From the NCBI GenBank assembly GCA_016234155.1, contig JACRGZ010000013.1, forward strand, positions 1 through 32,555: a stretch of 32,555 nt of DNA. Direction: 5' to 3'. This document shows positions 1 to 31,711 of the stretch, one piece after another; positions within the stretch are counted from its first letter, which is position 1, and each line of letters begins with the position of its first letter. The DNA comes from Nitrospirota bacterium (GTDB taxonomy: Bacteria > Nitrospirota > 9FT-COMBO-42-15 > HDB-SIOI813). A model generated the notes under the pieces. The model was not told where the DNA came from. It worked only from the letters and a program-made list of their open reading frames with translations, and searched no databases. A program made the translations under genes and the position numbers.

Positions 1-2153
1 AATCTATCAATAAATCTAAAGGCCGGCGGTCCCTGATTCTCGAGGAGCATGCTTTTATTGGATATCCCAATATACCGCGGATGGGCCAGATTGGATACAA
101 AGAGGTCTAAGTCCCCGTCATTGTCATAGTCTCCCCACTCTGCGCCGATCGAATGTCCGTAGTAACCCTCTTCCTCATTCCCTTCTACGCCTGCCTCCAT
201 AGCAACATTTGTGAATGTGCCGTCCCCGTTATTCCGCCATAGGAAATTTGGGTCCAATCTATAATTCGCAACATATATATCGGGGTCTCCGTCATTATCA
301 TAGTCACCCCAGTTTACCCCCCTGCCGCACATCTTTTCCGGGGAGACTGTACCTACAAGAGCGCTTATGTCGGTAAATGAGCCGGCCATAAAGGCCGGCA
401 TGGACTCACCCTCCCCCGTACCCCCTCCCGTCAAGGGAGGGGGGGCATTTCTGAGGAGGCGGTCTTGTCGGCACCTTGCCCTCGCTACACTCTCAGACAA
501 TGGTCTTTCATAGTTGGCTATATATATGTCAATAAGGCCGTCATTGTCATAATCGCCCCATGCAGCAGCCTCGGTAGGAAGGGTGTCAGGGTCTGCCAGG
601 GCCGTTGGGGTAATATCAGTGAATGCCCCGTCCCCGTTATTCCTCCAAAATCTGTCAGTTGACCCCTTGCCTGATGCAAACGTATAAAAATCAATGTTGC
701 CGTCATTGTTGAAGTCCCCCCATAAACCTCCATTGGCGCCTGTAATACCGCCGATCCCTGCATCCTTCGTTACGTCAGTAAATGTCCCGTTGCCATTGTT
801 CTTAAAAAGTACCGTCCCATTAAACAGTATGTCTTCATATCCGTCATTATTATAGTCACCCCATGCGACCCTGCTTGCCCTTGCCTCTGATAATCCAGCC
901 TCTCTCGTTACGTCCGTAAATGATGTAACCCCCCTTTTTTTTGCAAAGAACTTGTTTGGCGGCTCTTCTACTAACAATCCCTCTAACCCTGTCGTCCTCC
1001 CTTTGATAAAGGGATATAAGGCCATGAGCCTCTCCTCTGCCTCCTTATTTTCTCCAGACTGATGGGCCTGCACATACGAATCAATTGCCCCGTATATCTC
1101 CCCATTTTCTTCGAGCAATAGTCCCTGGTGGTAGTACAGGTCCTTGTCATATTCAAGTAATTTAACTCCCCGTTTATATGCCTTCTCTGCATCTTTGTAT
1201 CTGCCAAGCTTGTAGTATGCCAAGCCAAGCGTGTCATAGTATGTCCCCTTTGCCTTTTTCAGGTCTTTGTGCCATTCAGTATCAGGGTAATGTTCAGGTT
1301 TATCAGCAGGGTCAGGATTGTTAATAAGGATTAATGCCTTTTTCAAATATGAGACTGCCATCTCTAAGGCGATATCCTTCTTTGTATACCAGTAGCCCAC
1401 AGAAAAATTTGCCCTCCTGTTATCAGGTTCATCCCTGATCCATTCTTCTCCGAATTGAAATAACCTCTCCTTATCTTTAAGTTCCTCTGCGGCTATGCTC
1501 ATCCGGATTGAGCGAACCATGTGGCGCTCTTTGCCTGAAGGAAATAGCCTCAAAAAGTCATCTATCATCTTCAGGCGCTTCTCTGCATCCTTCTCCGGCA
1601 GGATATTTTCTGAGAGATAATTAGAAAGGGTTGACCTGATCTCCTCATCAGGATCCAAGCCCATTATTTCTTCTGCTATTTTATCCGTCCTTTCATTTTT
1701 ATGAAGGAAGCTAAACCCTCTAAAGGCGGCCATAAGCCTCTCCGGGCCTTTATCTCCAGAGTTCATAAAGACCTCTATATCTATTTCCACTTCCTCCTTT
1801 GCCTTTTCCGAGTAACCGGACTCTTCTAATCTTACGGCCCAAAGGCCGACATAGGCCCCAAATGCATCCCTGTCATACCTTAATGCCTCTTTGTATGCAT
1901 GCCTGGCGCCTTCATAATTTTCTATTGTAAAATAGACATCCCCGAGGGCAACCCATGCCTCTGCATTCTTCTGATTATATCTAAGGGACTTTATCAGGGC
2001 GGCCTCTGCCCTGTCATATTTGCGCTTGTCAGCAAATGCCACCCCATTTTTAAGGTGTGTATCTGACTTGTAAGACTCTATAAGGGAGACACATCCCGTG
2101 GATATTAGAGAGGCATAGATGATAAGGGGGATCAGGGAAAGTTTTTTGACCAT
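1..2153 (-). CDS. TPR-repeat plus FG-GAP/VCBS-repeat (CRTAC1/ASPIC-UnbV-like) putative lipoprotein; C-terminal part runs off the window
   Basis: Absent from the ORF track because it has no stop in the window. Manual reverse-complement translation from ATG 2153-2151 stays open to position 1. It gives MVKKLSLIPLIIYASLISTGC (signal/lipobox-like), TPR-like helices, then repeated WGDY(D/N)NDG..D and (W/F)xNNG(D/N)GTFTDV motifs typical of FG-GAP/CRTAC1 proteins. The start overlaps the stop of the upstream gene by 22 nt. Confidence 0.75.
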   Translation of the reverse strand, partial: MVKKLSLIPLIIYASLISTGCVSLIESYKSDTHLKNGVAFADKRKYDRAEAALIKSLRYNQKNAEAWVALGDVYFTIENYEGARHAYKEALRYDRDAFGAYVGLWAVRLEESGYSEKAKEEVEIDIEVFMNSGDKGPERLMAAFRGFSFLHKNERTDKIAEEIMGLDPDEEIRSTLSNYLSENILPEKDAEKRLKMIDDFLRLFPSGKERHMVRSIRMSIAAEELKDKERLFQFGEEWIRDEPDNRRANFSVGYWYTKKDIALEMAVSYLKKALILINNPDPADKPEHYPDTEWHKDLKKAKGTYYDTLGLAYYKLGRYKDAEKAYKRGVKLLEYDKDLYYHQGLLLEENGEIYGAIDSYVQAHQSGENKEAEERLMALYPFIKGRTTGLEGLLVEEPPNKFFAKKRGVTSFTDVTREAGLSEARASRVAWGDYNNDGYEDILFNGTVLFKNNGNGTFTDVTKDAGIGGITGANGGLWGDFNNDGNIDFYTFASGKGSTDRFWRNNGDGAFTDITPTALADPDTLPTEAAAWGDYDNDGLIDIYIANYERPLSESVARARCRQDRLLRNAPPPLTGGGTGEGESMPAFMAGSFTDISALVGTVSPEKMCGRGVNWGDYDNDGDPDIYVANYRLDPNFLWRNNGDGTFTNVAMEAGVEGNEEEGYYGHSIGAEWGDYDNDGDLDLFVSNLAHPRYIGISNKSMLLENQGPPAFRFIDR
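381..399. repeat. R4 hairpin GCCGGCC-ATAAA-GGCCGGC (inside the CRTAC1-like CDS, adjoining R1 copy 1)
   Basis: Perfect 7-bp palindrome, 17/19 identical to 13911-13929. Confidence 0.8.
407..445 (-). repeat. R1 G/C-run hairpin module, copy 1 (inside the CRTAC1-like CDS)
   Basis: The sense strand reads CCCCCCCTCCC-TTGAC-GGGAGGGGG-TAC-GGGGGAGGGTG, with the same architecture as copies at 7916 and 22637. Confidence 0.85.
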
Positions 2154-3631
2154 TCCTTTGAGTGATAACAGGTAAGTCTCCACCGGTCATATAGTTTTAC
2201 GGCGTCCTGTTCGGCGATTTTAGGGTTAAATGTCTTTGCAGCAGGAGTGAGCCTTTCCACAGATGATACCCCCTGCCAGACCCTCCGGCTGAGACCGGCC
2301 AGGAAGGCGACACCGAGGGCAATGGAGTCCCCTTCCCTTGCCTTGTTCAAGGGTCTGCGCAGAATATCTGCCTGAAACTCTAAAAGATAGGGTATGTCCG
2401 CCACCTTACCGTTTGCAATAATCCTTTTTAGGGGTATACGCCCGTCTGCCAGTACTACGTTGATGGTATCTTTTACCAGGAATGCGATAGATTCTACAGC
2501 AGCTCGTACCATATCCTCCCTTGCCGTAGAAGATTTAAGCCCGTATATACAGGTTGTATTGTTAGTATCCCGGTAAGGGGAGCCGGCCCCTGTGATGGAC
2601 GGGAACATGAATAAACGGCCTGCAGATGCCCTGCATAACTTATCAATATCATCATTCTGTTTGATAATACCGAGGTTGGTTTGCATCCACTCTAATATTG
2701 AGCCGGCCGAGTTTATGACACCTTCAAGCATGTATGTAGTATTATCGCCATTTGACCAGGCGATAGTCGTCAGAAGTCCGGGCAATAAAAATATCTTCTT
2801 CCCTGTATTGGTGAGGATAAAACCGGTACTATTATAATTTATATGGACATCCCCTTCCTGAAACAGGCCGTGTCCGATAAGTGAGGCCTGATGTTCTGCT
2901 GTAGATGCATGAATTGGTATGGTCTGTCCTTCTATTAATGCATCTCCATAGTGGACTGATGTAGGGAGGATAGACGGGAGGATCTCAGGAGGTATATTGA
3001 ATAGTTCAAGCAGTTCTTTATCCCATGATTTTGTAAAAATATTACACAGGAGTGTCTGTGCGGCGCTTGCGTGGTCTATTGTAAATGCCGCCCCTTTTGT
3101 AAGGTGCCACATCAGGTATGTATTTACCGGGCCGCACAGCAGTCGCCCTTTTTCCAGCAGCTTTTGTGCTGACTTTGTATTCTCTAATACCCACTTTATC
3201 TTTGATGCGGAATAGTAAGGGGATAAGATAAGTCCTGTCCGTTCACGGACTGTCTCACGATAATCCACCTTCTCTTTGCATATCTCTGTTCCACGGGGAT
3301 CGGTATAGCTTATGGAATTATAGATTGGTTTGCCTGTATCTTTATCCCAGAGTATTATTGTAGAGCGTTGTCCTGCAAATCCTGCAGCGGCTATCTGACT
3401 CTTTTTATTCCCTATCTTTTTAAATAATACCTTTATTGCGTTCTGCTGGCTTTTCAGTATATCGGCGGGTCTGTATTCAATCCAGCCTGATTTAAGCCAG
3501 CCTGATTTAAGATAGATGGGCCGCAGGGGGTGTTCCCCCTGGGCGATAATTTTACCTTTATTATCAATGAGAGTTGCCTTTGAATTTAAAGAGCCTTGCT
3601 CAAGTGCAAGGATATATTGGCCCATGGGCAT
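2132..3631 (-). CDS. FGGY-family carbohydrate kinase, glycerol-kinase-like but divergent
   Basis: The 499-aa ORF is colinear with GlpK-type kinases (GKPIYN, SPYYSASKIKW, LLTTIAW, EGVINSAGS, ITGAGSPY, ALGVAFLAG). Several positions I recall as catalytic or substrate-binding in GlpK are replaced: DQGTT->EQGSL, QRET->QRST, GDQQAA->AEHQAS, VDGG->ANGK. Confidence 0.7.
   Translation of the reverse strand: MPMGQYILALEQGSLNSKATLIDNKGKIIAQGEHPLRPIYLKSGWLKSGWIEYRPADILKSQQNAIKVLFKKIGNKKSQIAAAGFAGQRSTIILWDKDTGKPIYNSISYTDPRGTEICKEKVDYRETVRERTGLILSPYYSASKIKWVLENTKSAQKLLEKGRLLCGPVNTYLMWHLTKGAAFTIDHASAAQTLLCNIFTKSWDKELLELFNIPPEILPSILPTSVHYGDALIEGQTIPIHASTAEHQASLIGHGLFQEGDVHINYNSTGFILTNTGKKIFLLPGLLTTIAWSNGDNTTYMLEGVINSAGSILEWMQTNLGIIKQNDDIDKLCRASAGRLFMFPSITGAGSPYRDTNNTTCIYGLKSSTAREDMVRAAVESIAFLVKDTINVVLADGRIPLKRIIANGKVADIPYLLEFQADILRRPLNKAREGDSIALGVAFLAGLSRRVWQGVSSVERLTPAAKTFNPKIAEQDAVKLYDRWRLTCYHSKEWSKNFP
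3482..3511 (-). repeat. Perfect tandem 15-bp duplication inside the FGGY kinase CDS
   Basis: CCAGCCTGATTTAAG occurs twice on the plus strand, giving the duplicated LKSGW-LKSGW in the protein. Confidence 0.9.
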
Positions 3632-3762: not shown

Positions 3763-3787
3763 TAGCCTGCCCTGAACTTGTTTCAGG
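3763..3787 (-). repeat. R3 hairpin module (CCCTGAAACAAGTTCAGGGCAGGCT), copy a
   Basis: It is 25/25 identical to the reverse complement of 22607-22631 and contains a 7-bp-stem hairpin CCCTGAA/TTCAGGG. Intergenic, upstream of the GGDEF-EAL gene. Confidence 0.9.
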
Positions 3788-3825
3788 GTCATCGTACAAA
3801 AACCCCGGTGGCTGGCCTGAAGAGC

Positions 3826-5538
3826 ATGAAAAAATCAATTACAAAACGGCGAAAAAGGATGGAGTCAGAAGAGCTCTACCGCTCGGTAATCGAGCAGGCA
3901 TCAGAGGGGATACTGCTCGTTTCAATTAACAATAAAAAGATCATAGAGGGGAATGCGGCCTTTAACAATCTGCTCGGCTACAGCAGCGGGGAAGTTGTTA
4001 ATATGAGCCTCTACGACATAATTGCAGAGGGGCGTGAGACTATAGACCTTGAGGTTGATCGTATCCTTCGGGAAAAAAGAGATATAAGGCTGTACCACAG
4101 GGACGGGTCTTACGTCTATGCAGAATTATCGGCTAACAGTATTACTTATAATGACCAGGATACGATGTGCCTTGTTGTGCATGATATAACTGAAAGGAAA
4201 CGTTTTGAAGAACAACTGATGTTTCAGGCAAATCACGACTCACTGACCGGGCTTGCCAACAAGGGCCTCCTCGAGGACCGCCTTAGTCAGGCTACAGCCT
4301 ACCAGAAGCGGAAAAATAACATACTTGCGATAATGCTCCTTGACCTCGACCGCTTTAAGGTCATTAACGATACCCTTGGCCACCCTGCCGGGGACATCCT
4401 TTTACAGGCTGTTGCTGAACGGTTGAAGGTATCTGTGAGGAGCTATGATACCGTGGCACGCCTCGGAGGAGATGAGTTTGTCATCGTTGTTACAGATGTC
4501 TTAAACACCAATGATGTCATTACTATTGCAAAGAATATCCTGAATCTCTTTACCACACCATTTACGCTAAACGGACAGGAGTTATTTGTTACAGCAAGTA
4601 TCGGGATATCTGTCTATCCATTTGACGGTGATAGCGTTGAACACCTCTTGATGAAGGCAGATACGGCAATGTATCATTGTAAGGGGCAGGGCGGGAACAA
4701 CTATCAGTTTTTTGCTGAAGATATGAACATAAAGGTGAGAGACAGGCTTACGCTGGAAACAAGCCTGCGAAAGGCCATTGATCAGGAAGAACTGATCCTC
4801 TATTATCAGCCTAAGGTGGATCTGACAACAGGGCGTATCTGCGGGATGGAGGCCTTAATAAGGTGGCGGCGTGCAGACGGCAAATTGGTCTTACCCGCGG
4901 AATTTATACCATTGGCTGAAGAGACGGGATTAATAATCCCCATAGGTGAATGGGTGCTGCGTAATGCCTGCAGGGACACCAGACGGTTGCTGGATAAGGG
5001 ATACTCCGGACTACGTGTTTCGGTAAATCTCTCCGGCCGTCAATTTGCGCAGCAAAACCTGGTTGAGATGCTGAAGGATGCCCTGACGGAGAGCGGCCTC
5101 GATCCGGGACACCTTGAATTAGAGCTGACTGAGAGCGTCCTGATGAAGGATGAAGAAGGGATTATCAAAAAGCTTTGTGCAATGAAAGAAACAGGGGTAA
5201 TGCTGTCTATTGACGATTTTGGCACGGGTTATTCATCCCTGAGTTATCTGAAAAGATTCCCGATAGACGAGATCAAGATTGACAGGTCATTTGTTCAGGA
5301 CATCACAAACAATCCTGATGGCGCTGCAATCGTTAATGCAATCCTGGCAATGGCGCATACACTCAAATTGCGGGTTGTCGCCGAAGGGGTCGAGACTATG
5401 GAGCAGGCGATGTTCTTAGTCGAGCACCGGTGCGAAGAGATGCAGGGGTACTACTTTAGCCCGCCGTTGCCGCTTGAGGCATTTGAAGAGATGCTCCGTT
5501 CCGGGAAGCAACTGACCGTAGCATCTCAGCACATCTGA
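3826..5538 (+). CDS. PAS-GGDEF-EAL c-di-GMP signalling protein
   Basis: PAS-like N-terminus. The GGDEF domain has an intact ARLGGDEFVIV motif. The EAL domain has EALIRW, DDFGTGYSSLSYL and the Q..GYYFS tail. The track start TTG 3778 lies inside repeat R3, so the first ATG (3826) is preferred. Confidence 0.85.
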   Translation: MKKSITKRRKRMESEELYRSVIEQASEGILLVSINNKKIIEGNAAFNNLLGYSSGEVVNMSLYDIIAEGRETIDLEVDRILREKRDIRLYHRDGSYVYAELSANSITYNDQDTMCLVVHDITERKRFEEQLMFQANHDSLTGLANKGLLEDRLSQATAYQKRKNNILAIMLLDLDRFKVINDTLGHPAGDILLQAVAERLKVSVRSYDTVARLGGDEFVIVVTDVLNTNDVITIAKNILNLFTTPFTLNGQELFVTASIGISVYPFDGDSVEHLLMKADTAMYHCKGQGGNNYQFFAEDMNIKVRDRLTLETSLRKAIDQEELILYYQPKVDLTTGRICGMEALIRWRRADGKLVLPAEFIPLAEETGLIIPIGEWVLRNACRDTRRLLDKGYSGLRVSVNLSGRQFAQQNLVEMLKDALTESGLDPGHLELELTESVLMKDEEGIIKKLCAMKETGVMLSIDDFGTGYSSLSYLKRFPIDEIKIDRSFVQDITNNPDGAAIVNAILAMAHTLKLRVVAEGVETMEQAMFLVEHRCEEMQGYYFSPPLPLEAFEEMLRSGKQLTVASQHI

Positions 5539-5540
5539 CC

Positions 5541-5638
5541 TTTTACTCATTGGACAGACCTGAACAAATCCAAAATCCTAAATTTATTCTACCTACACTT
5601 GAATCCTCGACCCCTCGACCCCTTGAACCCTAATTTTC
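5541..5638 (+). repeat. Mosaic of repeat fragments (T3, T4, T1, and the right arm of T2) between convergent genes
   Basis: TTTTACTCATT (T3-like), GGACAGACCTGAA (T4 half), CAAATCCAAAATCCTAAATTT (T1-like), and ACTTGAATCCTCGACCCCTCGACCCCTTGAACCCTAATTT (T2 right arm only). Confidence 0.75.
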
Positions 5639-7861: not shown

Positions 7862-7915
7862 AAGTTTCTACTATAGTTATTTTATCGTTGCTTGTAAATA
7901 GTGCTGCACCACTTT

Positions 7916-7953
7916 ACCCTCCCCCTTGATGGGGGAGGGTTAGGGTGGGGGTG
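7916..7953 (+). repeat. R1 G/C-run hairpin module, copy 2 (immediately upstream of the fdhE-like start)
   Basis: ACCCTCCCCC-TTGAT-GGGGGAGGG-TTA-GGGTGGGGGTG. Confidence 0.85.
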
Positions 7954-7956
7954 AAA

Positions 7957-9012
7957 ATGATGTCAAGAAACTTTTCAATATACAAGTCCTACCTTGACGA
8001 GCGGGGAAAACTGCATCCATTCATGCAGGACATGATCCTCTTCTACAAGGGGCTGATTGATATATGGGGTGAAGCCTCCCCTGACGACCTTTCTCCTTTG
8101 TTCCCCCCCCTCACTCAAGTTTTCCCCCCTTTTTTAAAGGGGGGTGAGGGGGGATTAAAGTGTATGCTCAACAAGGATAAAATCAAAGCCTTGGATTTTA
8201 CCAACAGCATAAGCGTCGCAAAGAAAATATTTAAATTATTCGAACAGGAGAAGAAAGATGCGGATATTGAATGTGCCGGCGCATCACCAGATGCCATTAT
8301 CGAATTTATAAAAGATGGCCTTGCCAGTGAGGAGAGATATAAAAACGCTATCCTTAAATGGATACTCAAGCCATCTTTTGAATACACAATAGGTAAGCTA
8401 AAAATAATTGGCCAAACTACCCTCCCCCCCTCGTTCATATCCCCTCTCCCCACCCCCCTCCATATCCTCCCCCCACACGGGGGGGAGGAAAAAAGCTTGC
8501 CCCCGAAGTATTTATCGGGGGGTGGGGGGGGTGATTTGCAGGGGGAGAGGGGAAGGGTGAGGGGGAGCAAATCGGTGAGGGGGAGCGTAGGCGGCATATG
8601 CCCCCTGTGCGCCTCCCCTCCAGGCATGGCCCTTGTCTATGCCCCTGGTGATGGAACATCTGATCAGCGCCTCCTCTCCTGCTGCTTCTGCGGATACAGG
8701 TGGCCTTATTCCATGACCGGCTGTCCGGCATGTGGCAATGACAGTCCGGAAAAGTTTGGTTTCTTTGTCGGGGATTCATCCCCCAAAGAAAGCCCAAAAG
8801 AACCCCCAAAAGAACCCCCAAAAGAAACTAATGACCAGGGTGTGCGTGCCGTAAGCTGTGAGGAGTGCAAGACTTATCTGAAGACCATCTTCATAGGATG
8901 CCGTGGTGACAACAGAGCCCCTGAGGACTTGGACATGGACATAGAAGACGTAGCTACCCTCCACCTCGATATAATAGCCAACCAGCGTGGGTACAAAGCC
9001 CTCTGTGGGTGA
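7957..9012 (+). CDS. FdhE-like zinc-ribbon protein carrying in-frame repeat insertions
   Basis: The C-terminal half follows the FdhE pattern: CPLC..(R)LLSCCFCGYRW..CPACG...VSCEECKTYLK...DMDIEDVATLHLDI...G. The track start GTG 7945 lies inside repeat R1, so ATG 7957 is preferred. No formate dehydrogenase genes are in the window. Confidence 0.65.
   Translation: MMSRNFSIYKSYLDERGKLHPFMQDMILFYKGLIDIWGEASPDDLSPLFPPLTQVFPPFLKGGEGGLKCMLNKDKIKALDFTNSISVAKKIFKLFEQEKKDADIECAGASPDAIIEFIKDGLASEERYKNAILKWILKPSFEYTIGKLKIIGQTTLPPSFISPLPTPLHILPPHGGEEKSLPPKYLSGGGGGDLQGERGRVRGSKSVRGSVGGICPLCASPPGMALVYAPGDGTSDQRLLSCCFCGYRWPYSMTGCPACGNDSPEKFGFFVGDSSPKESPKEPPKEPPKETNDQGVRAVSCEECKTYLKTIFIGCRGDNRAPEDLDMDIEDVATLHLDIIANQRGYKALCG
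8103..8153 (+). repeat. R1b nested G/C palindrome inside the fdhE-like CDS
   Basis: The outer stem pairs CCCCCCTCAC (8105-8114) with GTGAGGGGGG (8144-8153). The inner stem pairs CCCCCCTTT (8124-8132) with AAAGGGGGG (8136-8144). The 51 nt equal 17 codons. Confidence 0.8.
8441..8552 (+). repeat. R2 composite G/C palindromic element, copy a (inside the fdhE-like CDS; G/C-run flanks extend to ~8418-8595)
   Basis: The core CCTCCATATCCTCCCCCC-ACAC-GGGGGGGAGG-AAAAAAGCTTGCCCCCGAAGTATTTATCGGGGGGTGGGGG..ATTTGCAGGGGGAG matches the reverse complement of 26709-26820. The outer arms CCCCTCTCCCC and GGGGAGAGGGG pair. Confidence 0.85.
8782..8829 (+). repeat. In-frame tandem 12-nt repeat x4 (PKES-PKEP-PKEP-PKET) in the fdhE-like CDS
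   Basis: CCCAAAGAAAGC CCAAAAGAACCC CCAAAAGAACCC CCAAAAGAAACT. Confidence 0.9.
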
Positions 9013-9064
9013 ATGAGTGAATGGGTGAATGAGTAAAACCAATGATCCCATCTACCCATCTACC
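9007..9064 (+). repeat. T3 hairpin (GGGTGAAT/GAGTGAAT octamers), copy a
   Basis: GGGTGAATGAGTGAATGGGTGAATGAGTAAAACC .. CCCATCTACCCATCTACC. The fdhE-like stop TGA (9010-9012) lies inside it. Confidence 0.8.
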
Positions 9065-9068
9065 GATT

Positions 9069-9219
9069 GAGGCTCTTGCAAAAGTCCCCATTTTGTCATT
9101 CCCGCAGGGATTCTGAGCGGGAATCTGGTTCTAAGTGCTTGAAAAAGCATATCCCTCCCCGAGTGCTTCTATCGGGGATAGAAGATTTCGGGGATGACAT
9201 AGACTTTTGCAAGAACCTC
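9069..9219 (+). mobile_element. M1 MITE-like element, copy a (151 bp, 17-bp TIRs, GATT flanking duplication)
   Basis: The element runs GAGGCTCTTGCAAAAGT ... ACTTTTGCAAGAACCTC, with GATT on both flanks (9065-9068 and 9220-9223). The right ~70 nt are nearly identical to copy b. Internal hairpin ATTCCCGC/GCGGGAAT. Confidence 0.85.
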
Positions 9220-11153: not shown

Positions 11154-11301
11154 GGTAAAATCCTAAGCACTAAATCCTAAATTCTAAACAATATCAAATG
11201 ACCAAAATCCAAAATTCAAAACAGCAAGGCTTTAGAAGTTTTGAACATTTGGATTTAGGATTTTGAATTTGTTTAGGATTTAGATATTAGGATTTAGGAT
11301 T
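11154..11301 (+). repeat. T1 long imperfect hairpin built from AATCCTA-type heptamers, copy a
   Basis: The left arm is AAATCCTAAGCACTAAATCCTAAATTCTAAACAATATCAAATGACCAAAATCC. The right arm is ..GAATTTGTTTAGGATTTAGATATTAGGATTTAGGATT. It starts right after the stop at 11153. The arms are shared with 31572-31711. Confidence 0.85.
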
Positions 11302-12269: not shown

Positions 12270-12377
12270 ATTATTGGTAAGGGGTCAAGGGGTCAAGGAT
12301 TCAAGGGGTCAAGTGATATTAATTCACTTGAATCCTTGACCCCTCGACCCCTTGAACCCTAATTTAGGATTTTACCG
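12243..12377 (+). repeat. Nested composite hairpin: T1-type outer arms around T2 (GGGGTCAA octamer) inner arms
   Basis: The sequence runs AAATCCTAAATCCTAAATCCTAAATT .. GGGGTCAAGGGGTCAAGGATTCAAGGGGTCAAGTGA-TATTAA-TTCACTTGAATCCTTGACCCCTCGACCCCTTGAACCC .. TAATTTAGGATTTT. Confidence 0.85.
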
Positions 12378-13847: not shown

Positions 13848-13878
13848 ATTTTGGACAGACCTGAAGGTCTGTCCCTAC
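13848..13878 (+). repeat. T4 palindromic 31-mer ATTTTGGACAGACCTGAAGGTCTGTCCCTAC, copy a (nested in outer stem GGGTCATC/GATGACCC, 13833-13893)
   Basis: The 9-bp stem pairs GGACAGACC with GGTCTGTCC. It is identical to the reverse complement of 15348-15378. Confidence 0.9.
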
Positions 13879-13910
13879 GTCTCCCGATGACCCTACACCC
13901 TAGACTATAG

Positions 13911-14635: not shown

Positions 14636-14786
14636 GAGGCTCTTGCAAAAGTATAAAAATGTTGTCATTCCCGCATGGTTTAAGCGGGAATATAGTGTTT
14701 TATTACAGAAAATCATATCCGTCCCCGAGTGGCTTCTATCGGGGATAGAAGATTTCGGGGATGACATAGACTTTTGCAAGAGCCTC
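14636..14786 (+). mobile_element. M1 MITE-like element, copy b (151 bp, perfect 17-bp TIRs, CAAA flanking duplication)
   Basis: The element runs GAGGCTCTTGCAAAAGT ... ACTTTTGCAAGAGCCTC, with CAAA on both flanks (14632-14635 and 14787-14790). It lies between lptC and the body of lptA. Confidence 0.85.
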
Positions 14787-15323: not shown

Positions 15324-15347
15324 GGCTAAGTTAGGGTGAAGAAAGAT

Positions 15348-15378
15348 GTAGGGACAGACCTTCAGGTCTGTCCAAAAT
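15348..15378 (-). repeat. T4 palindromic 31-mer, copy b (inverted), between lptA and lptB
   Basis: It is 31/31 identical to the reverse complement of 13848-13878. Confidence 0.9.
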
Positions 15379-19152: not shown

Positions 19153-19164
19153 TAGTATATGTGA

Positions 19165-19234
19165 AGGGTTCAAGGGTTCAAGGGGTCAAGGGGTCGAGGG
19201 GTCAAGTGAAATTCACTCGACCCCTTGACCCCTT
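19165..19234 (+). repeat. T2 hairpin (GGGTTCAA/GGGGTCAA octamers), copy in the 5' leader of the MerR-pil operon
   Basis: AGGGTTCAAGGGTTCAAGGGGTCAAGGGGTCGAGGGGTCAAGTGAA-ATTCACTCGACCCCTTGACCCCTT. The arms have unequal unit numbers. Confidence 0.85.
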
Positions 19235-21634: not shown

Positions 21635-22156
21635 GTGGCGGCATCAATTTTAATGATTATTTTGTTGACAATCGTTGGCTGTTCTGAACAGACGGTTCAG
21701 ACGCCAGGCCTGCAGCCGGCGACGCAGCAAGATATGAAGGGAAAACAACCTCCCCAGGCTGTTGCCCGGACATCTGTAGAAAGTGCGGCGGGGGAGGCAG
21801 CGGCCGCATATAGTTACAGGACCGGGGGGAGGAGAGATCCGTTCAGGTCACTGATTTTAGGGCTTAGAGAGAAAAAAACAGTTGGTCTCACGCCTCTTCA
21901 GCAGAGAAGTTTGGGAGAGCTCAAGGTAATTGGGATTATCTGGGGGAGCGGGGGGTATGTTGCAATGATAGAGACCCCGGATGGAAAAGGGTATTTAATA
22001 AAAGAAGGGGTTCTGATAGGTTCTGAGGGAGGGGTTATAAAAAAGATTACAGAGGATTCTGTAATCATCGAAGAGGTATATACAGATTATTATGGCAGAA
22101 AGATGTCTAAAAAGACCGTGTTAGGGCTTCATGCTAAAGAGGAGGGTGGTGGATGA
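21635..22156 (+). CDS. pilP: Type IV pilus assembly lipoprotein PilP
   Basis: Lipobox LTIVGC, ~170 aa, position between pilO and pilQ. GTG start. Confidence 0.7.
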   Translation: MAASILMIILLTIVGCSEQTVQTPGLQPATQQDMKGKQPPQAVARTSVESAAGEAAAAYSYRTGGRRDPFRSLILGLREKKTVGLTPLQQRSLGELKVIGIIWGSGGYVAMIETPDGKGYLIKEGVLIGSEGGVIKKITEDSVIIEEVYTDYYGRKMSKKTVLGLHAKEEGGG

Positions 22157-24876
22157 AGTTATTTAATTTTCATGGGATCATCTGTGCAGTATTTGCAGCC
22201 TTATGTCTTTCTGCATGTTCTCCAAAGGTTCAACAGGTGGTAAGCAGTGCAGAGGTCATAGGGGCTGTACAGGCGACTGCTATCCCAAGGCTTACAAAAA
22301 TTGAAGTGGACGATTTACCGGCGAGCACGCAGATTCTATTAGAGGCGGAGGATGTTTTGAATTATACATCCTTTAATCTCTCCGATCCTCCAAGACTGAT
22401 TATTGATTTGGCGGATATCTCCCTGGGAGAGTTTAAGGAACCTATATCAGTAAATAAGGGGTCTGTTATAGATATCTACCCTATTGAGGCAGATACCCCC
22501 GGGAGGATTACAAGGCTGAATATAAAACTCGTCAGTGATTCCGTAGAATCACAGATTTTCAGAAAGGACGGCACGCTTGTAGTAGATATTCCGAAGATAC
22601 CCCCAACCCTGAAACAAGTTCAGGGCAGGCTCTATCCCTCCCCCCTTGAGGGGGAGGGCAAGGGTGGGGGGGGTAAGGAGGAAGAAGTTACAGCAGAGGC
22701 TTTTGCTGTAGAACCTATTGCGGAAGTACCGCCTGTTGCAGGACCACTTGCTATAGAACTGCCTGTTGCAGAGCCTCTTGCTGCAGAACCTCCTGTCGAA
22801 GTGCCGTCCGTTGAGGAACCTCCTATGGAAGTAACATCTGTTGCAGAACCTCCTGTGGAAGTGCCGCCTGCGGCAGAATCCTATGCAGCAGAGTCTCCTT
22901 TACCTGCTCCTGTTGCTGGAGTTCCTGTGTCTGGGATGGTGGGCAATGTCCGCCCTACACCTGAGGCTTCTGTGTCAGAGACGACTGCAGTGCCGGATAC
23001 GTCTACAGCAAAAGCTGCTGTCTCAGAAGCGGACACTCCTCCTATACAAAAGGAATTCAACATTGTTAAAGATGTAAAGAGCCTTTCATCTGATGATAAA
23101 GACAGCATTGTTATTACCGCTGATAAAGATATTAATGCAGAGACATTTATTGTTGAAGGCGGCAAGTTAGTAGTTGATATAAAAGATGCGACCCATTCGA
23201 TTTACCCATCTGAGAAACCTGTTGAAAGCAGTTTGATATCAAAGATCAGGATCGGACTTCACCCAGCGCCGGTCAACAAGGTAAGGGTTGTTGCTGACCT
23301 CAAAAGGGAGATAAGATACGATGTCAGCAGACATGGGAGCGGTTTGACCATAGATATTTTTCCAAAATCCGGAAAAATAACGCTAAAAAAACCTGATGAG
23401 AAAACCATGTCTGACATTACCGGGGCATCTGCTGAAACCCCTTTGCAAAAAGGGGACGCATCCGTCAGCGCTCCTCCCGCTGACACAAAGGAATCTCCCG
23501 CAACTGTGACACCTCCGCCGGCTCCGTTAGCAGCAGCAATGAACACGGATAAGGTCGTTTCTGAGGTGTCAACAACTGAAGTAAGAGAAGAAAAGCCGGC
23601 GCCGCCTCCTCAAGTTACCACTAATGTGCCGGAGAAAAAGAACGGCACATATGCCAGCAAGAAGGTATCCCTTGATTTTCAGGACGCGGACATAGTGAAT
23701 GTCCTGAGACTGCTTGCAGAGGTAAGCAGGTTAAATATGATCATAGGGGATAATGTCAAGGGGAGGATAACAATAAAGATGCTGGATGTGCCATGGGACC
23801 AGGCCCTTGATGTGATCTTGAAGATGAAAGGGCTTGGCAAGATATTTGAAAACAACGTTGTCAGGATAGACACCCTTGCTAATATTGCCCAGCAACAGGA
23901 GGAGGAGGCAAGGGCAAAAGAGGCAATGGTCAAGGCAGAGGATCTGGAGACAAAGATATTTCCTGTAAATTATGCGCGGGGAAAAGAAGTCGCTGAATCG
24001 GTCAGAAAGACCCTGAGCGCAAGGGGTGATATTACGGTAGACGACCGCACAAATACCCTGATTATAAAAGACGTTAAGGATAAACATGAAGAGATCAGCA
24101 GGCTTCTTAAGGCGCTTGACAGGCCAACCCCGCAGGTTTTGATTGAGGCGCGGATTGTTCAGGCAGACACGAATTTCGCAAAAGACCTTGGAATACAGTG
24201 GGGGGGTGACTATTCTTCAAATCCTGGCAGTTACAATATAGGCGTTATCGGCGGGCCCACAGGAACGGTGGGAGCTCCAACAACGGGATTTGTAGTTAAC
24301 CTTCCGGCGTCCGGTGTGGCAGGGGCTAAAGGCAGTCTTGGTTTTACAATAGGGAAGACGGTAGGGGATGCCTTTAATCTTGACTTAAGGCTTTCTGCCG
24401 GGGAGACAAAGGGGTTAACAAAGGTACTGTCAGCCCCCAAGATTGCCACCCTCGATAACAGGGAGGCTACAATCCAGCAGGGGGAATCAATCCCGTACAA
24501 GACTGTGTCACAGGGTGGGACAAAGACGGAGTTTATTGACGCCACCCTTACACTTAAGGTGACCCCGAAGGTCACCCCCGATGGCCATATTGCGATGAAT
24601 ATCAAGATAACCAAGAACCGCCAGGGCTCGATAGTGGTAGAAGGGACACCCAGCATAAACAAGAAAGAGGCCACAACAGAGGTTCTTGTGAAAGACGGTG
24701 AGACGACAGTGATCGGCGGTATTTACGAGATTTCAGATGTAGATAATCTCAGTGCAGTCCCATGGGTTCATCAGGTCCCGCTGCTTGGATGGCTTTTTAA
24801 GAGCACACAGAAGTCAAATATCAAGAGTGAACTCCTGATATTTATCACACCTAAGATCATTCCTGTGACTTTATGA
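22153..24876 (+). CDS. pilQ: Type IV pilus secretin PilQ with AMIN domains and a long Pro/Glu/Ala/Val-rich linker
   Basis: Lipoprotein-type signal (LCLSAC), AMIN-like modules (..PPRLIIDLADI.., ..KLVVDIKDA.., ..GLTIDIFP), and a secretin C-terminus (VPLLGWLFK....ELLIFITPKII). Confidence 0.9.
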   Translation: MKLFNFHGIICAVFAALCLSACSPKVQQVVSSAEVIGAVQATAIPRLTKIEVDDLPASTQILLEAEDVLNYTSFNLSDPPRLIIDLADISLGEFKEPISVNKGSVIDIYPIEADTPGRITRLNIKLVSDSVESQIFRKDGTLVVDIPKIPPTLKQVQGRLYPSPLEGEGKGGGGKEEEVTAEAFAVEPIAEVPPVAGPLAIELPVAEPLAAEPPVEVPSVEEPPMEVTSVAEPPVEVPPAAESYAAESPLPAPVAGVPVSGMVGNVRPTPEASVSETTAVPDTSTAKAAVSEADTPPIQKEFNIVKDVKSLSSDDKDSIVITADKDINAETFIVEGGKLVVDIKDATHSIYPSEKPVESSLISKIRIGLHPAPVNKVRVVADLKREIRYDVSRHGSGLTIDIFPKSGKITLKKPDEKTMSDITGASAETPLQKGDASVSAPPADTKESPATVTPPPAPLAAAMNTDKVVSEVSTTEVREEKPAPPPQVTTNVPEKKNGTYASKKVSLDFQDADIVNVLRLLAEVSRLNMIIGDNVKGRITIKMLDVPWDQALDVILKMKGLGKIFENNVVRIDTLANIAQQQEEEARAKEAMVKAEDLETKIFPVNYARGKEVAESVRKTLSARGDITVDDRTNTLIIKDVKDKHEEISRLLKALDRPTPQVLIEARIVQADTNFAKDLGIQWGGDYSSNPGSYNIGVIGGPTGTVGAPTTGFVVNLPASGVAGAKGSLGFTIGKTVGDAFNLDLRLSAGETKGLTKVLSAPKIATLDNREATIQQGESIPYKTVSQGGTKTEFIDATLTLKVTPKVTPDGHIAMNIKITKNRQGSIVVEGTPSINKKEATTEVLVKDGETTVIGGIYEISDVDNLSAVPWVHQVPLLGWLFKSTQKSNIKSELLIFITPKIIPVTL
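22607..22631 (+). repeat. R3 hairpin module, copy b (inside pilQ, fused to R1 copy 3)
   Basis: It is an identical 25-mer, translated in frame as TLKQVQGR. Confidence 0.9.
22637..22673 (+). repeat. R1 G/C-run hairpin module, copy 3 (inside pilQ)
   Basis: CCCTCCCCCC-TTGA-GGGGGAGGG-CAA-GGGTGGGGGGGG, translated in frame as PSPLEGEGKGGGG. Confidence 0.85.
22780..22869 (+). repeat. In-frame tandem 30-nt repeat x3 in the PilQ linker
   Basis: The three units are GCTGCAGAACCTCCTGTCGAAGTGCCGTCC, GTTGAGGAACCTCCTATGGAAGTAACATCT and GTTGCAGAACCTCCTGTGGAAGTGCCGCCT. Confidence 0.85.
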
Positions 24877-24974
24877 GGGGTAAATGAGTAAATGGGTAAA
24901 TGAGTGAATGAGTATATGAGTAAAACCACCCATTTTACCCATCTACTCATTTACCCATTCACTCATTCACTCAC
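24877..24974 (+). repeat. T3 hairpin, copy b; fills the whole pilQ-aroC intergenic space
   Basis: GGGGTAAATGAGTAAATGGGTAAATGAGTGAATGAGTATATGAGTAAAACC-ACCCATTTTACCCATCTACTCATTTACCCATTCACTCATTCACTCAC. Confidence 0.85.
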
Positions 24975-26708: not shown

Positions 26709-26820
26709 CCCCTCCCCCTGTAAATTGCCCCCCACCCCCCGATAAATACTTCGGGGGCAAGCTTTATTCCTCCCCCCCCTTGTGGGGGGGGAGGATATGG
26801 AGGGGGGGGGAGGGTTAGAG
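26709..26820 (-). repeat. R2 composite G/C palindromic element, copy b (intergenic aroK-aroB, inverted relative to copy a)
   Basis: Its reverse complement aligns to 8455-8552 at roughly 90% identity by eye. It contains C8, G8 and G9 runs. Confidence 0.85.
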
Positions 26821-31205: not shown

Positions 31206-31574
31206 TTGGATATAGTATCACTACCGATTGTATTTGATAAGGGGAGATTAGACAGCAGGTTCCGATTAGTTGTCCTTGCTACTGAAAGGGCACGGCAACT
31301 CATGAGCGGGGCAAAACCTGGTATTTCTACAAGGTATATAAAGGCCTCCACTATTAGCCTTGAAGAGCTTGCATCGTGTGAGTTTGAATATGTTACAGGT
31401 AAAGATGCACGTAAGGCGATACAGGAGACGATAGCTAAGAAAGAACTGGGGGGTATGGGTGTTGCCGGAGAAGTTGTAGAAGAGGATGAGACAAAGAAAG
31501 AGATAGAAAAGGACCTTGGTGTTTATATACCGGAGGCCGGGAGTGGGACAGGGGCTGGAGGAGGGGAGGAGTAA
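31206..31574 (+). CDS. rpoZ: DNA-directed RNA polymerase subunit omega
   Basis: SRFRLVVLATERARQL core motif, position after gmk, and a TTG start. The acidic, Gly-rich C-terminal tail ends in a TAA that is the first base triplet of repeat T1b. Confidence 0.8.
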   Translation: MDIVSLPIVFDKGRLDSRFRLVVLATERARQLMSGAKPGISTRYIKASTISLEELASCEFEYVTGKDARKAIQETIAKKELGGMGVAGEVVEEDETKKEIEKDLGVYIPEAGSGTGAGGGEE

Positions 31575-31711
31575 ATCCTAAACTCTAAATCCTAAATCCT
31601 AAACAATATCAAATGACCAAAATTCAAATGTTGAAAACGGCATAGAGTTTTGAATTTAGGTCATTTGGATTTCGAATTTGTTTAGGATTTAGATATTAGG
31701 ATTTAGGGTTT
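31572..31711 (+). repeat. T1 long imperfect hairpin, copy b
   Basis: AAATCCTAAACTCTAAATCCTAAATCCTAAACAATATCAAATGACCAAAATTCAAA ... GAATTTGTTTAGGATTTAGATATTAGGATTTAGGGTT. The rpoZ TAA is its first triplet. Confidence 0.85.

Follow-up and report, generated by a model that had tools for sequence, protein, structure and literature searches.

A 24-nt hairpin unit with a CGTC-2 core lies in frame within a palindrome in the pilQ coding sequence of a Nitrospirota bacterium

In-frame insertion of palindromic repeats into genes is already established for the Rickettsia palindromic elements (RPEs) and for the repetitive extragenic palindromes (REPs) of the GTAG and CGTC types, so the basic phenomenon is not new. 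RPEs occur in unrelated genes, where the extra peptide is compatible with protein function; the first ones described are about 150 bp long, each with a conserved peptide open reading frame (ORF) (review PMC10969869). CGTC-tagged REPs have a CGTC or TGTC tag, a stem of 8–9 bp, a loop of 4–5 nt and a 3-nt tail that is mostly CCA (Di Nocera, De Gregorio & Rocco 2013, BMC Genomics 14:522; PMC3733652). In that report, head-to-head dimers predominate, several phyla and intragenic units are covered, no dedicated transposase is known, and TGTC and CCTC are given as tag variants. The superfamily takes in dRS3 of Neisseria and two Rickettsia families, RPE-4 (CGTC-4) and RPE-6 (CGTC-1), and Additional file 3 gives an in-frame CGTC-2 peptide, RHSELVSGS, in Sulfurovum SUN_0512 (PMC3733652). 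The present study concerns a contig of 32,555 nt from a metagenome-assembled genome (MAG) of a Nitrospirota bacterium, hereafter the window, in which the gene of the type IV pilus secretin PilQ contains in frame a C-arm/G-arm palindrome of about 47 nt (R1), with a 24-nt hairpin unit (R3) nested inside its 5′ arm.

Two other groups are similar in form. REPINs and the BIMEs of E. coli are short extragenic palindromes, often found as inverted doublets and mosaics and regarded as non-autonomous mobile DNA, with a GTAG-type tag and a RAYT gene. The small dispersed repeats (SDRs) of Elhai et al. (2008) are reportedly hairpin-containing units of 21–27 nt that behave as mobile DNA and sit within one another and at times within genes; they were reported only in Nostocaceae.

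The repeat segment of pilQ is probably selfish or neutral DNA that entered the gene in two steps and was tolerated because of its landing site. The gene lies in a pilMNOPQ-aroC-aroK-aroB cluster, with a PilM Pfam match upstream in the window and synteny with relatives. Its product displays the Pfam domains of a secretin (two AMIN domains, GspD N0, Secretin_N and Secretin), and the AlphaFold model, built on 35 homologues, gives confident domains; AMIN1 covers residues 52–145 and AMIN2 residues 313–401, followed by N0, Secretin_N and Secretin. The features of the gene, together with the second copy of R3, are the following.

22153..24876, + strand: pilQ, type IV pilus secretin of 907 aa, uninterrupted ORF (ORF list, Pfam, synteny)
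22306..22587, + strand: AMIN1 domain (Pfam PF11741, E=3.1e-7)
22600..22607, + strand: left part of the C-rich 5′ arm of R1, CCCCCAAC, split off by R3 (the arm is intact, CCCCCACCCTTGCCCCCCCCCC, in relatives L198 and L205)
22608..22631, + strand: R3, 24-nt unit CCTGAAACAAGTTCAGGGCAGGCT, identical to inverted 3764–3787 and absent from pilQ of L198 and L205
22632..22673, + strand: remainder of R1, that is, the rest of the 5′ arm CTATCCCTCCCCCC, the TTGA loop and the G-rich 3′ arm GGGGGAGGGCAAGGGTGGGGGGGG (hairpin pattern; present in L198 and L205)
22606..23046, + strand: disordered linker between the AMIN domains, residues 152–298 (AlphaFold pLDDT below 50; alignment of 40 homologues)
22688..22900, + strand: 15/30-nt tandem repeat encoding Pro/Glu/Val pentapeptides, much of the linker (12 tandem copies; TRF period 30, scores 89 and 116)
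3764..3787, − strand: intergenic R3 copy, exact match, with a clean empty site in relative L202

The order in which R1 and R3 arrived was studied in contigs 94–97% identical to the window; the proteins of the window led to them through their 90% protein clusters. L198 (ENA ERZ28563660) is 96.4% identical to the window over 3026 nt and L205 (ERZ4903185, a different sample) is 96.9% identical, while these two independent assemblies are 99.4% identical to each other. In both, pilQ contains R1 as a near-perfect palindrome of 20–21 bp and lacks R3. It reads ...GATATTCCGAAGTTA-CCCCCACCCTTGCCCCCCCCCC-TTGA-GGGGGAGGGCAAGGGTGGGGG..., translated VVDIPKLPPPLPPPLEGEGKGGGGKEEEVT; R1 without R3 runs ...CCGAAGTTACCCCCACCCTTGCCCCCCCCCCTTGAGGGGGAGGGCAAGGGTGGGGG, and the R3 empty site is CCCCCACCCTTG.... 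The counterpart in the window, CCCCCAAC + CCTGAAACAAGTTCAGGGCAGGCT + CTATCCCTCCCCCC-TTGA-..., is exactly 24 nt (8 codons) longer. R1 is common to the window and the 96–97% relatives and absent, like R3, from all more distant orthologues (82% identity or less). Because both lineages have it, R1 entered pilQ first. A previous reading of the window, made from sequence only, had placed R1 directly after R3; both modules are indeed there, but they are not simply juxtaposed, R3 being nested in the 5′ arm of the older R1.

In the proposed course of events, the R1 palindrome (C-rich arm, TTGA loop, G-rich arm) entered the start of the linker, after AMIN1, in frame; in a second step, taken by the window lineage only, R3 would have been inserted into the 5′ arm of R1. 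While the difference in R3 is directly visible, its direction is read from the relatives' near-perfect palindrome. In the R3-less form, CCCTTG of the 5′ arm is complementary to CAAGGG of the 3′ arm; parsimony therefore strongly favours an insertion of R3 over a deletion by which the palindrome was restored.

The intergenic copy of R3 lies in the spacer that separates the FGGY-kinase gene from the divergently oriented PAS-GGDEF-EAL gene, whose ATG follows about 40 nt downstream of the copy. L202 (Logan SRR22388270), about 94% identical, has there an empty site, AACTAT^GTCATC, that is exactly 24 nt shorter and shows no target-site duplication: the window reads AACTAT + AGCCTGCCCTGAACTTGTTTCAGG + GTCATCG, and L202 reads AACTAT-GTCATCT. 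The same unit would thus have been inserted cleanly in this spacer too. Presence or absence of discrete units was observed at three loci in all, and other intergenic spacers differ wholesale between the window and its close relatives.

The same data bear on the opposite polarity, in which R3 was already nested in R1 in pilQ of the common ancestor of the window and its 96% relatives and later disappeared from the relatives, the intergenic copy having been lost likewise. There is no outgroup at intermediate distance, palindromes are prone to deletion, and the flanks of R3 differ at 4/22 positions, all of which would suit such losses. On the other hand, the deletion would have to recreate a CCCTTG exactly complementary to CAAGGG in the 3′ arm, and precise losses of 24 nt would be required at two unlinked sites. 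About 39 kb of close-relative sequence contained no AGCCTG-tagged unit (the form of R3 in the window), and one canonical TGTC-tagged hairpin of the same family as the R3 core. Polarity of this kind is considered unlikely, and insertion remains the preferred direction.

An assembly artefact would be another way to obtain two alleles, either because the assembler stitched a repeat into pilQ of the window or because it collapsed the repeat in the relatives. The window is a MAG contig, and the relatives' contigs break off in the pilQ palindrome or shortly behind it, which indicates a region that is hard to assemble. Both flanks of the insert are nevertheless pilQ, in the right order and frame, so that two frame-restoring mis-joins would be needed. 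The R3-less allele was assembled independently twice (ERZ28563660 and ERZ4903185), and the 24-nt difference equals the clean indel at the unlinked locus. An artefact is thus very improbable.

Concerning the identity between both R3 copies, the window contains two exact occurrences of the 25-mer CCCTGAAACAAGTTCAGGGCAGGCT, at 22607–22631 (+) and 3764–3788 (−), compared with a mean of 0.00 in 100 shuffles of the window; no further window copy appeared even when 3 mismatches were allowed. The exact match spans 26 nt (22606–22631 versus 3764–3789), and 29 nt match at 97%. The identity claimed by the sequence-only reading therefore holds, with the intergenic coordinates one base away from the 3763–3787 that it gave. 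The hairpin of R3, CCCTGAA-ACAAG-TTCAGGG, uses one flanking C and is followed by the tail CAGGCT. R1 and R3 had been described together as extremely G/C-rich, which R3 is not.

In the protein, residues 152–174 are encoded by the repeat DNA and read TLKQVQGRLYPSPLEGEGKGGGG, the translation proposed before; R3 contributes (T)LKQVQGR(L) and the remainder of R1 (L)YPSPLEGEGKGGGG. The folded core of AMIN1 ends at residue 151, with its last strand at 141–147, and pLDDT, the per-residue confidence of AlphaFold, is about 90 at residues 43–151 and 301–405 and below 50 at 152–298, so the low-confidence linker starts at the first residue of the insert. The end of AMIN1 and the position of the linker place the insert between AMIN1 and the Pro/Glu-rich linker, where it had been located previously, and the ORF continues in frame to the secretin C-terminus. 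BLASTP of AMIN1 against AMIN2 gave no significant similarity, and AMIN1 was placed by Pfam instead. Among 40 aligned homologues, the linker varies in length from 0 to about 180 residues. A supposed thirteenth member of its tandem-repeat family, at 3355, was a chance match.

None of 77 other PilQ homologues (annotated as Nitrospirae where named; best identity 71–86% over part of the protein) contains LKQVQG, PSPLEG or EGEGKG at the insert site; an LKQVQ in P0074 was a chance match within the secretin domain, not a repeat. In the nearest named relatives, four syntenic pilMNOPQ-aroC loci that total 52 kb have neither R1-like nor R3-like hairpins (0 and 0, compared with 6 and 2 in the window). The segment is thus lineage-specific, and the opposite pattern, the same peptide in distant relatives that lack the repeats, was not found. 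Together with the filled and empty sites in near-identical relatives, this supports the proposal that repeat DNA became coding sequence without disrupting pilQ. It also bears on the view of the segment as an ordinary low-complexity linker, a Gly/Pro-rich peptide born of local slippage whose likeness to the repeats would be secondary or due to chance. The linker is certainly hypervariable and consists partly of 15-nt tandem repeats. Yet the 26-nt exact intergenic match (0 expected), a core identical across more than 15 phyla, the empty sites in relatives and the absence of the segment from all other homologues effectively refute this view, which is left with a practically negligible probability.

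The survival of the gene may be explained by the 8-codon unit with its mostly stop-free frames, by the near stop-free arms of R1 and by the hypervariable, unstructured spacer in which they lie. A length of 24 nt means that the reading frame is never shifted. R3 is stop-free in 4 of its 6 frames, one frame per strand having a stop (TGA); the open ones read PETSSGQA and LKQVQGR on one strand and ACPELVSG and PALNLFQ on the other. The arms of R1 are pure C/T or G/A, and stops are possible only via the TTGA loop.

The insertion was probably neutral for PilQ, and no PilQ function is needed or indicated. It could be argued that the nested hairpins or a G-quadruplex act in pilQ mRNA or DNA (as a pause after AMIN1, a site of mRNA processing or stability, or a recombination hot spot), or that the 23-residue peptide benefits the periplasmic linker. 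The 101 nt from 22590 to 22690 fold into a Y shape that as RNA has −50.9 kcal/mol and is more stable than shuffles (z = −2.5), and GGGGGAGGGCAAGGGTGGGG in the G-arm of R1, read from the sequence, is a canonical G-quadruplex motif. Two lineages that are 96% identical have both kept R1, and the G-run in pilQ is followed by an AAGGAGG string resembling a Shine-Dalgarno sequence. On the other hand, no start codon follows this string, orthologues with linkers of 0–180 aa function without such an element, R3 is polymorphic between near-identical genomes, and the same units occur in unrelated genes and spacers. Insertion of repeats into unrelated proteins has been argued to speak against functional constraint (Di Nocera et al., PMC3733652). 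An acquired function of the segment seems therefore improbable, and tolerated repeat DNA is the preferred explanation.

Several observations weigh against the two-step insertion of mobile repeats. After removal of the 24 nt, the arm of the window differs from that of L198 at 4/22 positions by the junction, so that either the R3 event was not perfectly clean or the arm diverged later. The polarity of R3 rests on the relatives' palindrome, with no outgroup used. At 7913–7951, where the window has an intergenic R1 and L197 (about 96% identical) has AAAC, the difference is a replacement (AAAC versus about 38 nt) rather than a clean insertion. The target-site analysis of R3 gave just a weak (R)AC^ preference on the flank opposite to the tag, and no transposase was found among the window ORFs in Pfam scans. 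Finally, the census of repeats covers the 32.5-kb window, and the insert peptide is a prediction from the DNA of a MAG contig.

The relationship of R3 to described families was approached by scanning the GTDB species genomes for its 19-nt core. At least 136 exact matches were found, in at least 120 stretches, while about 4.3 were expected by the analysis's own arithmetic (596 Gb, both strands); the counts below refer to the matches listed. The core was seen in more than 15 phyla, and its hosts include Sphingomonadales, Bacteroidota, Melainabacteria, Nitrospirota, Nitrospinota, Elusimicrobia, Spirochaetota, Dadabacteria, Caldiserica, the Candidate Phyla Radiation (CPR) and Chloroflexota. Among the 136 matches listed, 116 have TGAC(G/A) after the core and 117 have GGA or AGA before it, so that the other strand reads (C/T)GTC-ACCCTGAA-CTTGT-TTCAGGGT-CC(A). 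In 59/136, the core has an inverted sibling upstream, no more than 90 nt away. The tag (C/T)GTCA occurs in 116 of the listed genomic copies and the AGCCTG-type tag (CAGGC) in 3 of them.

Compared with CGTC-2, whose hairpin core is CTGAAC-TTGT-TTCAG, the R3 core CTGAACTTGTTTCAG also encodes ..SELVSGS, and the window 19-mer is the one found with a CGTC/TGTC tag in 116/136 listed copies, most of them with a TCC(A)/TCT tail. The 5-nt loop (ACAAG) fits too. The stem has 7 bp, 6 of them within the unit, versus 8–9 bp in CGTC REPs, the eighth position being an A.C mismatch. Both window copies read AGCCTG-CCCTGAAC..., without a CGTC, TGTC or CCTC tag; they end in TTCAGGG-TCA (at 3789) and TTCAGGG-TTG (PilQ), without a CCA-type tail; and they are single units instead of head-to-head dimers, a comparison based on the two copies on hand. 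Clean 24-nt empty sites and nesting in another palindrome within a gene are not described for CGTC-2 in the sections of the 2013 report used. Since the defining tag is replaced by AGCCTG, strict CGTC membership fails, although the core is shared. In the literature searched, neither the core sequence nor any of its peptides (LKQVQHD and others) was found.

The parallel with RPEs, drawn already by the sequence-only reading, is closer than was claimed then, as the R3 core equals the core of CGTC-2, whose superfamily includes RPE-4 and RPE-6. The likeness consists in the in-frame insertion. The window units are 24 nt and about 47 nt, below the size of RPEs (about 100–150 bp), and they belong to a free-living host, a Nitrospirota MAG, whereas that of the RPEs is an obligate intracellular alphaproteobacterium. 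With the SDRs as reported, R3 has in common its unit size (24 nt), presence or absence between related genomes (empty sites at two loci) and nesting within other repeats (R1 and the loops of further hairpins); unlike them, it occurs in metagenomes of many habitats, with its core in more than 15 phyla, and the likeness is one of description only. As to REPINs, doublets are frequent among the canonical copies that the R3 core has in other phyla (59/136 listed), whereas the window copies are singletons and have no GTAG tag. R1 could not be matched to any described repeat family. In Rfam, the whole window had no match at the gathering score, with one sub-threshold chance match to a miRNA model around the insert, and the tRNA/tmRNA search found none.

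The AGCCTG-tagged 24-mer was also sought in metagenomes, where 72 loci were recovered; T follows CAGGC in 46/58 non-redundant copies. In at least nine loci (L121, L134, L145, L155, L158, L165, L167, L178, L180) the unit lies directly upstream of an R1-type hairpin, with a C-rich stretch before it and a G-rich stretch after it, which is the arrangement in pilQ. In at least nine others (L125, L132, L142, L156, L174, L177, L181, L184, L187) it lies in the loop of another REP hairpin, as in gtcatYctgaa^unit^ttgtttcagRatc or gtcattgcgag^unit^..gcaatc. As the R3–R1 pair is found repeatedly in metagenomes and its fold is a Y with an outer stem, a single composite mobile unit was considered. It was rejected because L198 and L205 carry R1 alone at the site, which is better explained by sequential insertion in which R1-type palindromes serve as preferred targets.

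R3 is best seen as a tag variant of CGTC-2 that probably acts as a very small non-autonomous mobile element and favours the arms and loops of other palindromic repeats. It would probably be mobilized in the form of a single-stranded DNA hairpin, by an enzyme whose gene lies elsewhere, with a chemistry resembling that of IS200/IS605 or RAYT, which leaves no target duplication. A bolder version, put forward tentatively and held to be doubtful, is that the AGCCTG-tagged unit is a currently active, frame-neutral element of 8 codons (open in 4/6 frames) that spreads within and between phyla, prefers other palindromic repeats as landing sites (their arms or loops, with no duplication of the target) and depends for its movement on a trans-acting enzyme that has yet to be connected with CGTC-type REPs.

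The unit or its core was also found in frame in other genes, in other phyla; for the first six entries below, Pfam matches span the site or lie on both sides of it:

TrpD (L143): AGCCTG-tagged unit in frame inside the catalytic domain, GEG-SPETSSGQA-LDEIS
CobW-type GTPase (L168, L192; two copies): AGCCTG-tagged unit in frame in a His-rich loop
ZnuA (L166): AGCCTG-tagged unit in frame in a His-rich loop
FecR (L140): AGCCTG-tagged unit in frame
MetE (L034): canonical core in frame at two sites, from the genome scan
GT2 glycosyltransferase (L064): canonical core in frame, from the genome scan
BNR-repeat protein (L159/L136): R3 hairpin core in frame

The long stop-free frames that run over R3 in high-GC Sphingomonad loci were discarded as spurious unless Pfam domains flanked the site. 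The length and codon content of the unit, almost harmless to reading frames, help to explain why the core is found in frame in TrpD, MetE, ZnuA, CobW and PilQ across phyla.

What is added to the known phenomenon is a base-exact, stepwise reconstruction, from genomes 94–97% identical, of a palindrome entering a gene and a 24-nt unit then nesting inside it. Defined ends and empty sites are also provided for a superfamily without a known mobilizing enzyme, which makes the unit a clean substrate for studying how CGTC-type REPs move. If the reading as an active element were true, that substrate for mobilization would be a concrete one, and the rate of protein remodelling would be measurable. In practical terms, these modules create spurious similarity among unrelated proteins and also break metagenome assemblies.

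The remaining R1-type and composite repeats of the window are the following.

7913..7951, + strand: intergenic R1 copy, hairpin 7917–7939 plus tail TTAGGGTGGGGG, directly upstream of the fdhE-like start; absent in L197
405..447, − strand: diverged R1-like hairpin with G-rich tail, translated in frame as part of a TPR/FG-GAP ("CRTAC1-like") protein
8452..8541, + strand: G/C-rich composite of about 87–90 nt (29 codons), in frame in the fdhE-like ORF; absent in L197/P0079
26700..26863, + strand: intergenic G/C-rich composite of R1-type hairpins in the aroK-aroB spacer (repeat search)

The R1 hairpin, CCCTCCCCC-N5-GGGGGAGGG, has perfect copies at 7917–7939 (intergenic) and 22636–22658 (PilQ) and degenerate copies at 8465–8487 and 26768–26790, a total of 4 window matches versus 0.02 expected. 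The G-rich tail GGGAGGGNNAGGGTGGGGG is common to the copies at 7933 and 22652, and both perfect copies end in ..AGGGTGGGGG. The copy upstream of the fdhE-like gene is therefore the perfect one that had been pointed out before. It ends 3 nt before the fdhE start, so that it supplies a G-rich stretch where the ribosome-binding site would lie. The copy reported in the CRTAC1-like gene does exist, but as a diverged relative: it reads CCCCCTCCC-TTGAC-GGGAGGGGG-TAC-GGGGGAGGGTGAG, in frame as APPPLTGGGTGEGES, within ORF 3–2129. R1-like hairpins in the window number 6, of which 4 are within ORFs. Each of the G-rich arms at 22650–22673 (GGGGGAGGGCAAGGGTGGGGGGGG) and 7929–7951 (GGGGGAGGGTTAGGGTGGGGG) is a G-quadruplex motif of four tracts, in competition with which the hairpin would have to form.

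The fdhE-like composite sits in the loop of an R1-like hairpin (8441–8451 / 8542–8552) and has an inverted sibling (83%) at 26728–26809, in the aroK-aroB spacer. L197/P0079 lacks this nested element and otherwise matches at about 96% (nt) and 91% (aa). In the aroK-aroB spacer of L199 (96%), a canonical TGTC-tagged CGTC-2 hairpin takes the place of the window's composite. The fdhE-like ORF (7954–9012) has several in-frame repeat-derived stretches (8124–8144, 8452–8541, 8553–8570 and 8780–8828): a C6/G6 hairpin (PFLKGGEGG), the nested element of about 87–90 nt, an 18-nt duplication and a 12-nt tandem repeat. The 96% L197/P0079 lacks three of these features of the window, namely the nested element, the 18-nt duplication and two repeat units; P0097, from a different lineage, has another insert at the first of the fdhE sites.

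Tandem arrays of 7–8 nt (AAGGGGTC, GTAAATGA, AAATCCT and others) occur in spacers as inverted pairs that could form long hairpins (5596–5636, 9004–9041, 11158–11301, 12279–12360, 19164–19233, 24880–24973 and 31573–31711). A 93-nt array between pilQ and aroC is absent in the 96% relatives L199–L201, whose spacer is shorter than 10 nt. In the PAS-GGDEF-EAL gene (3826–5538), about 880 nt coding for a CHASE4 sensor region are missing after codon 7 in comparison with the 94% L202 (570 aa versus 857 aa). A TGTC-tagged hairpin, ATTCCCGC...GCGGGAAT, similar to CGTC-1/dRS3, lies at about 9088–9125. Two other repeats are a 35-nt hairpin repeat (97%; 13848–13882 / 15344–15378) and a 55-nt direct repeat (98%; 9165–9219 / 14732–14786). 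L199 has, between aroC and aroK, an insert of about 190 nt that is absent from the window (1843–2018, 2528–2617 of L199) and starts GTCATGAGCC..GGCT..AAGGAGCATGAAAAT; its module also flanks the R3–R1 composites in metagenome loci L121, L178 and L180.

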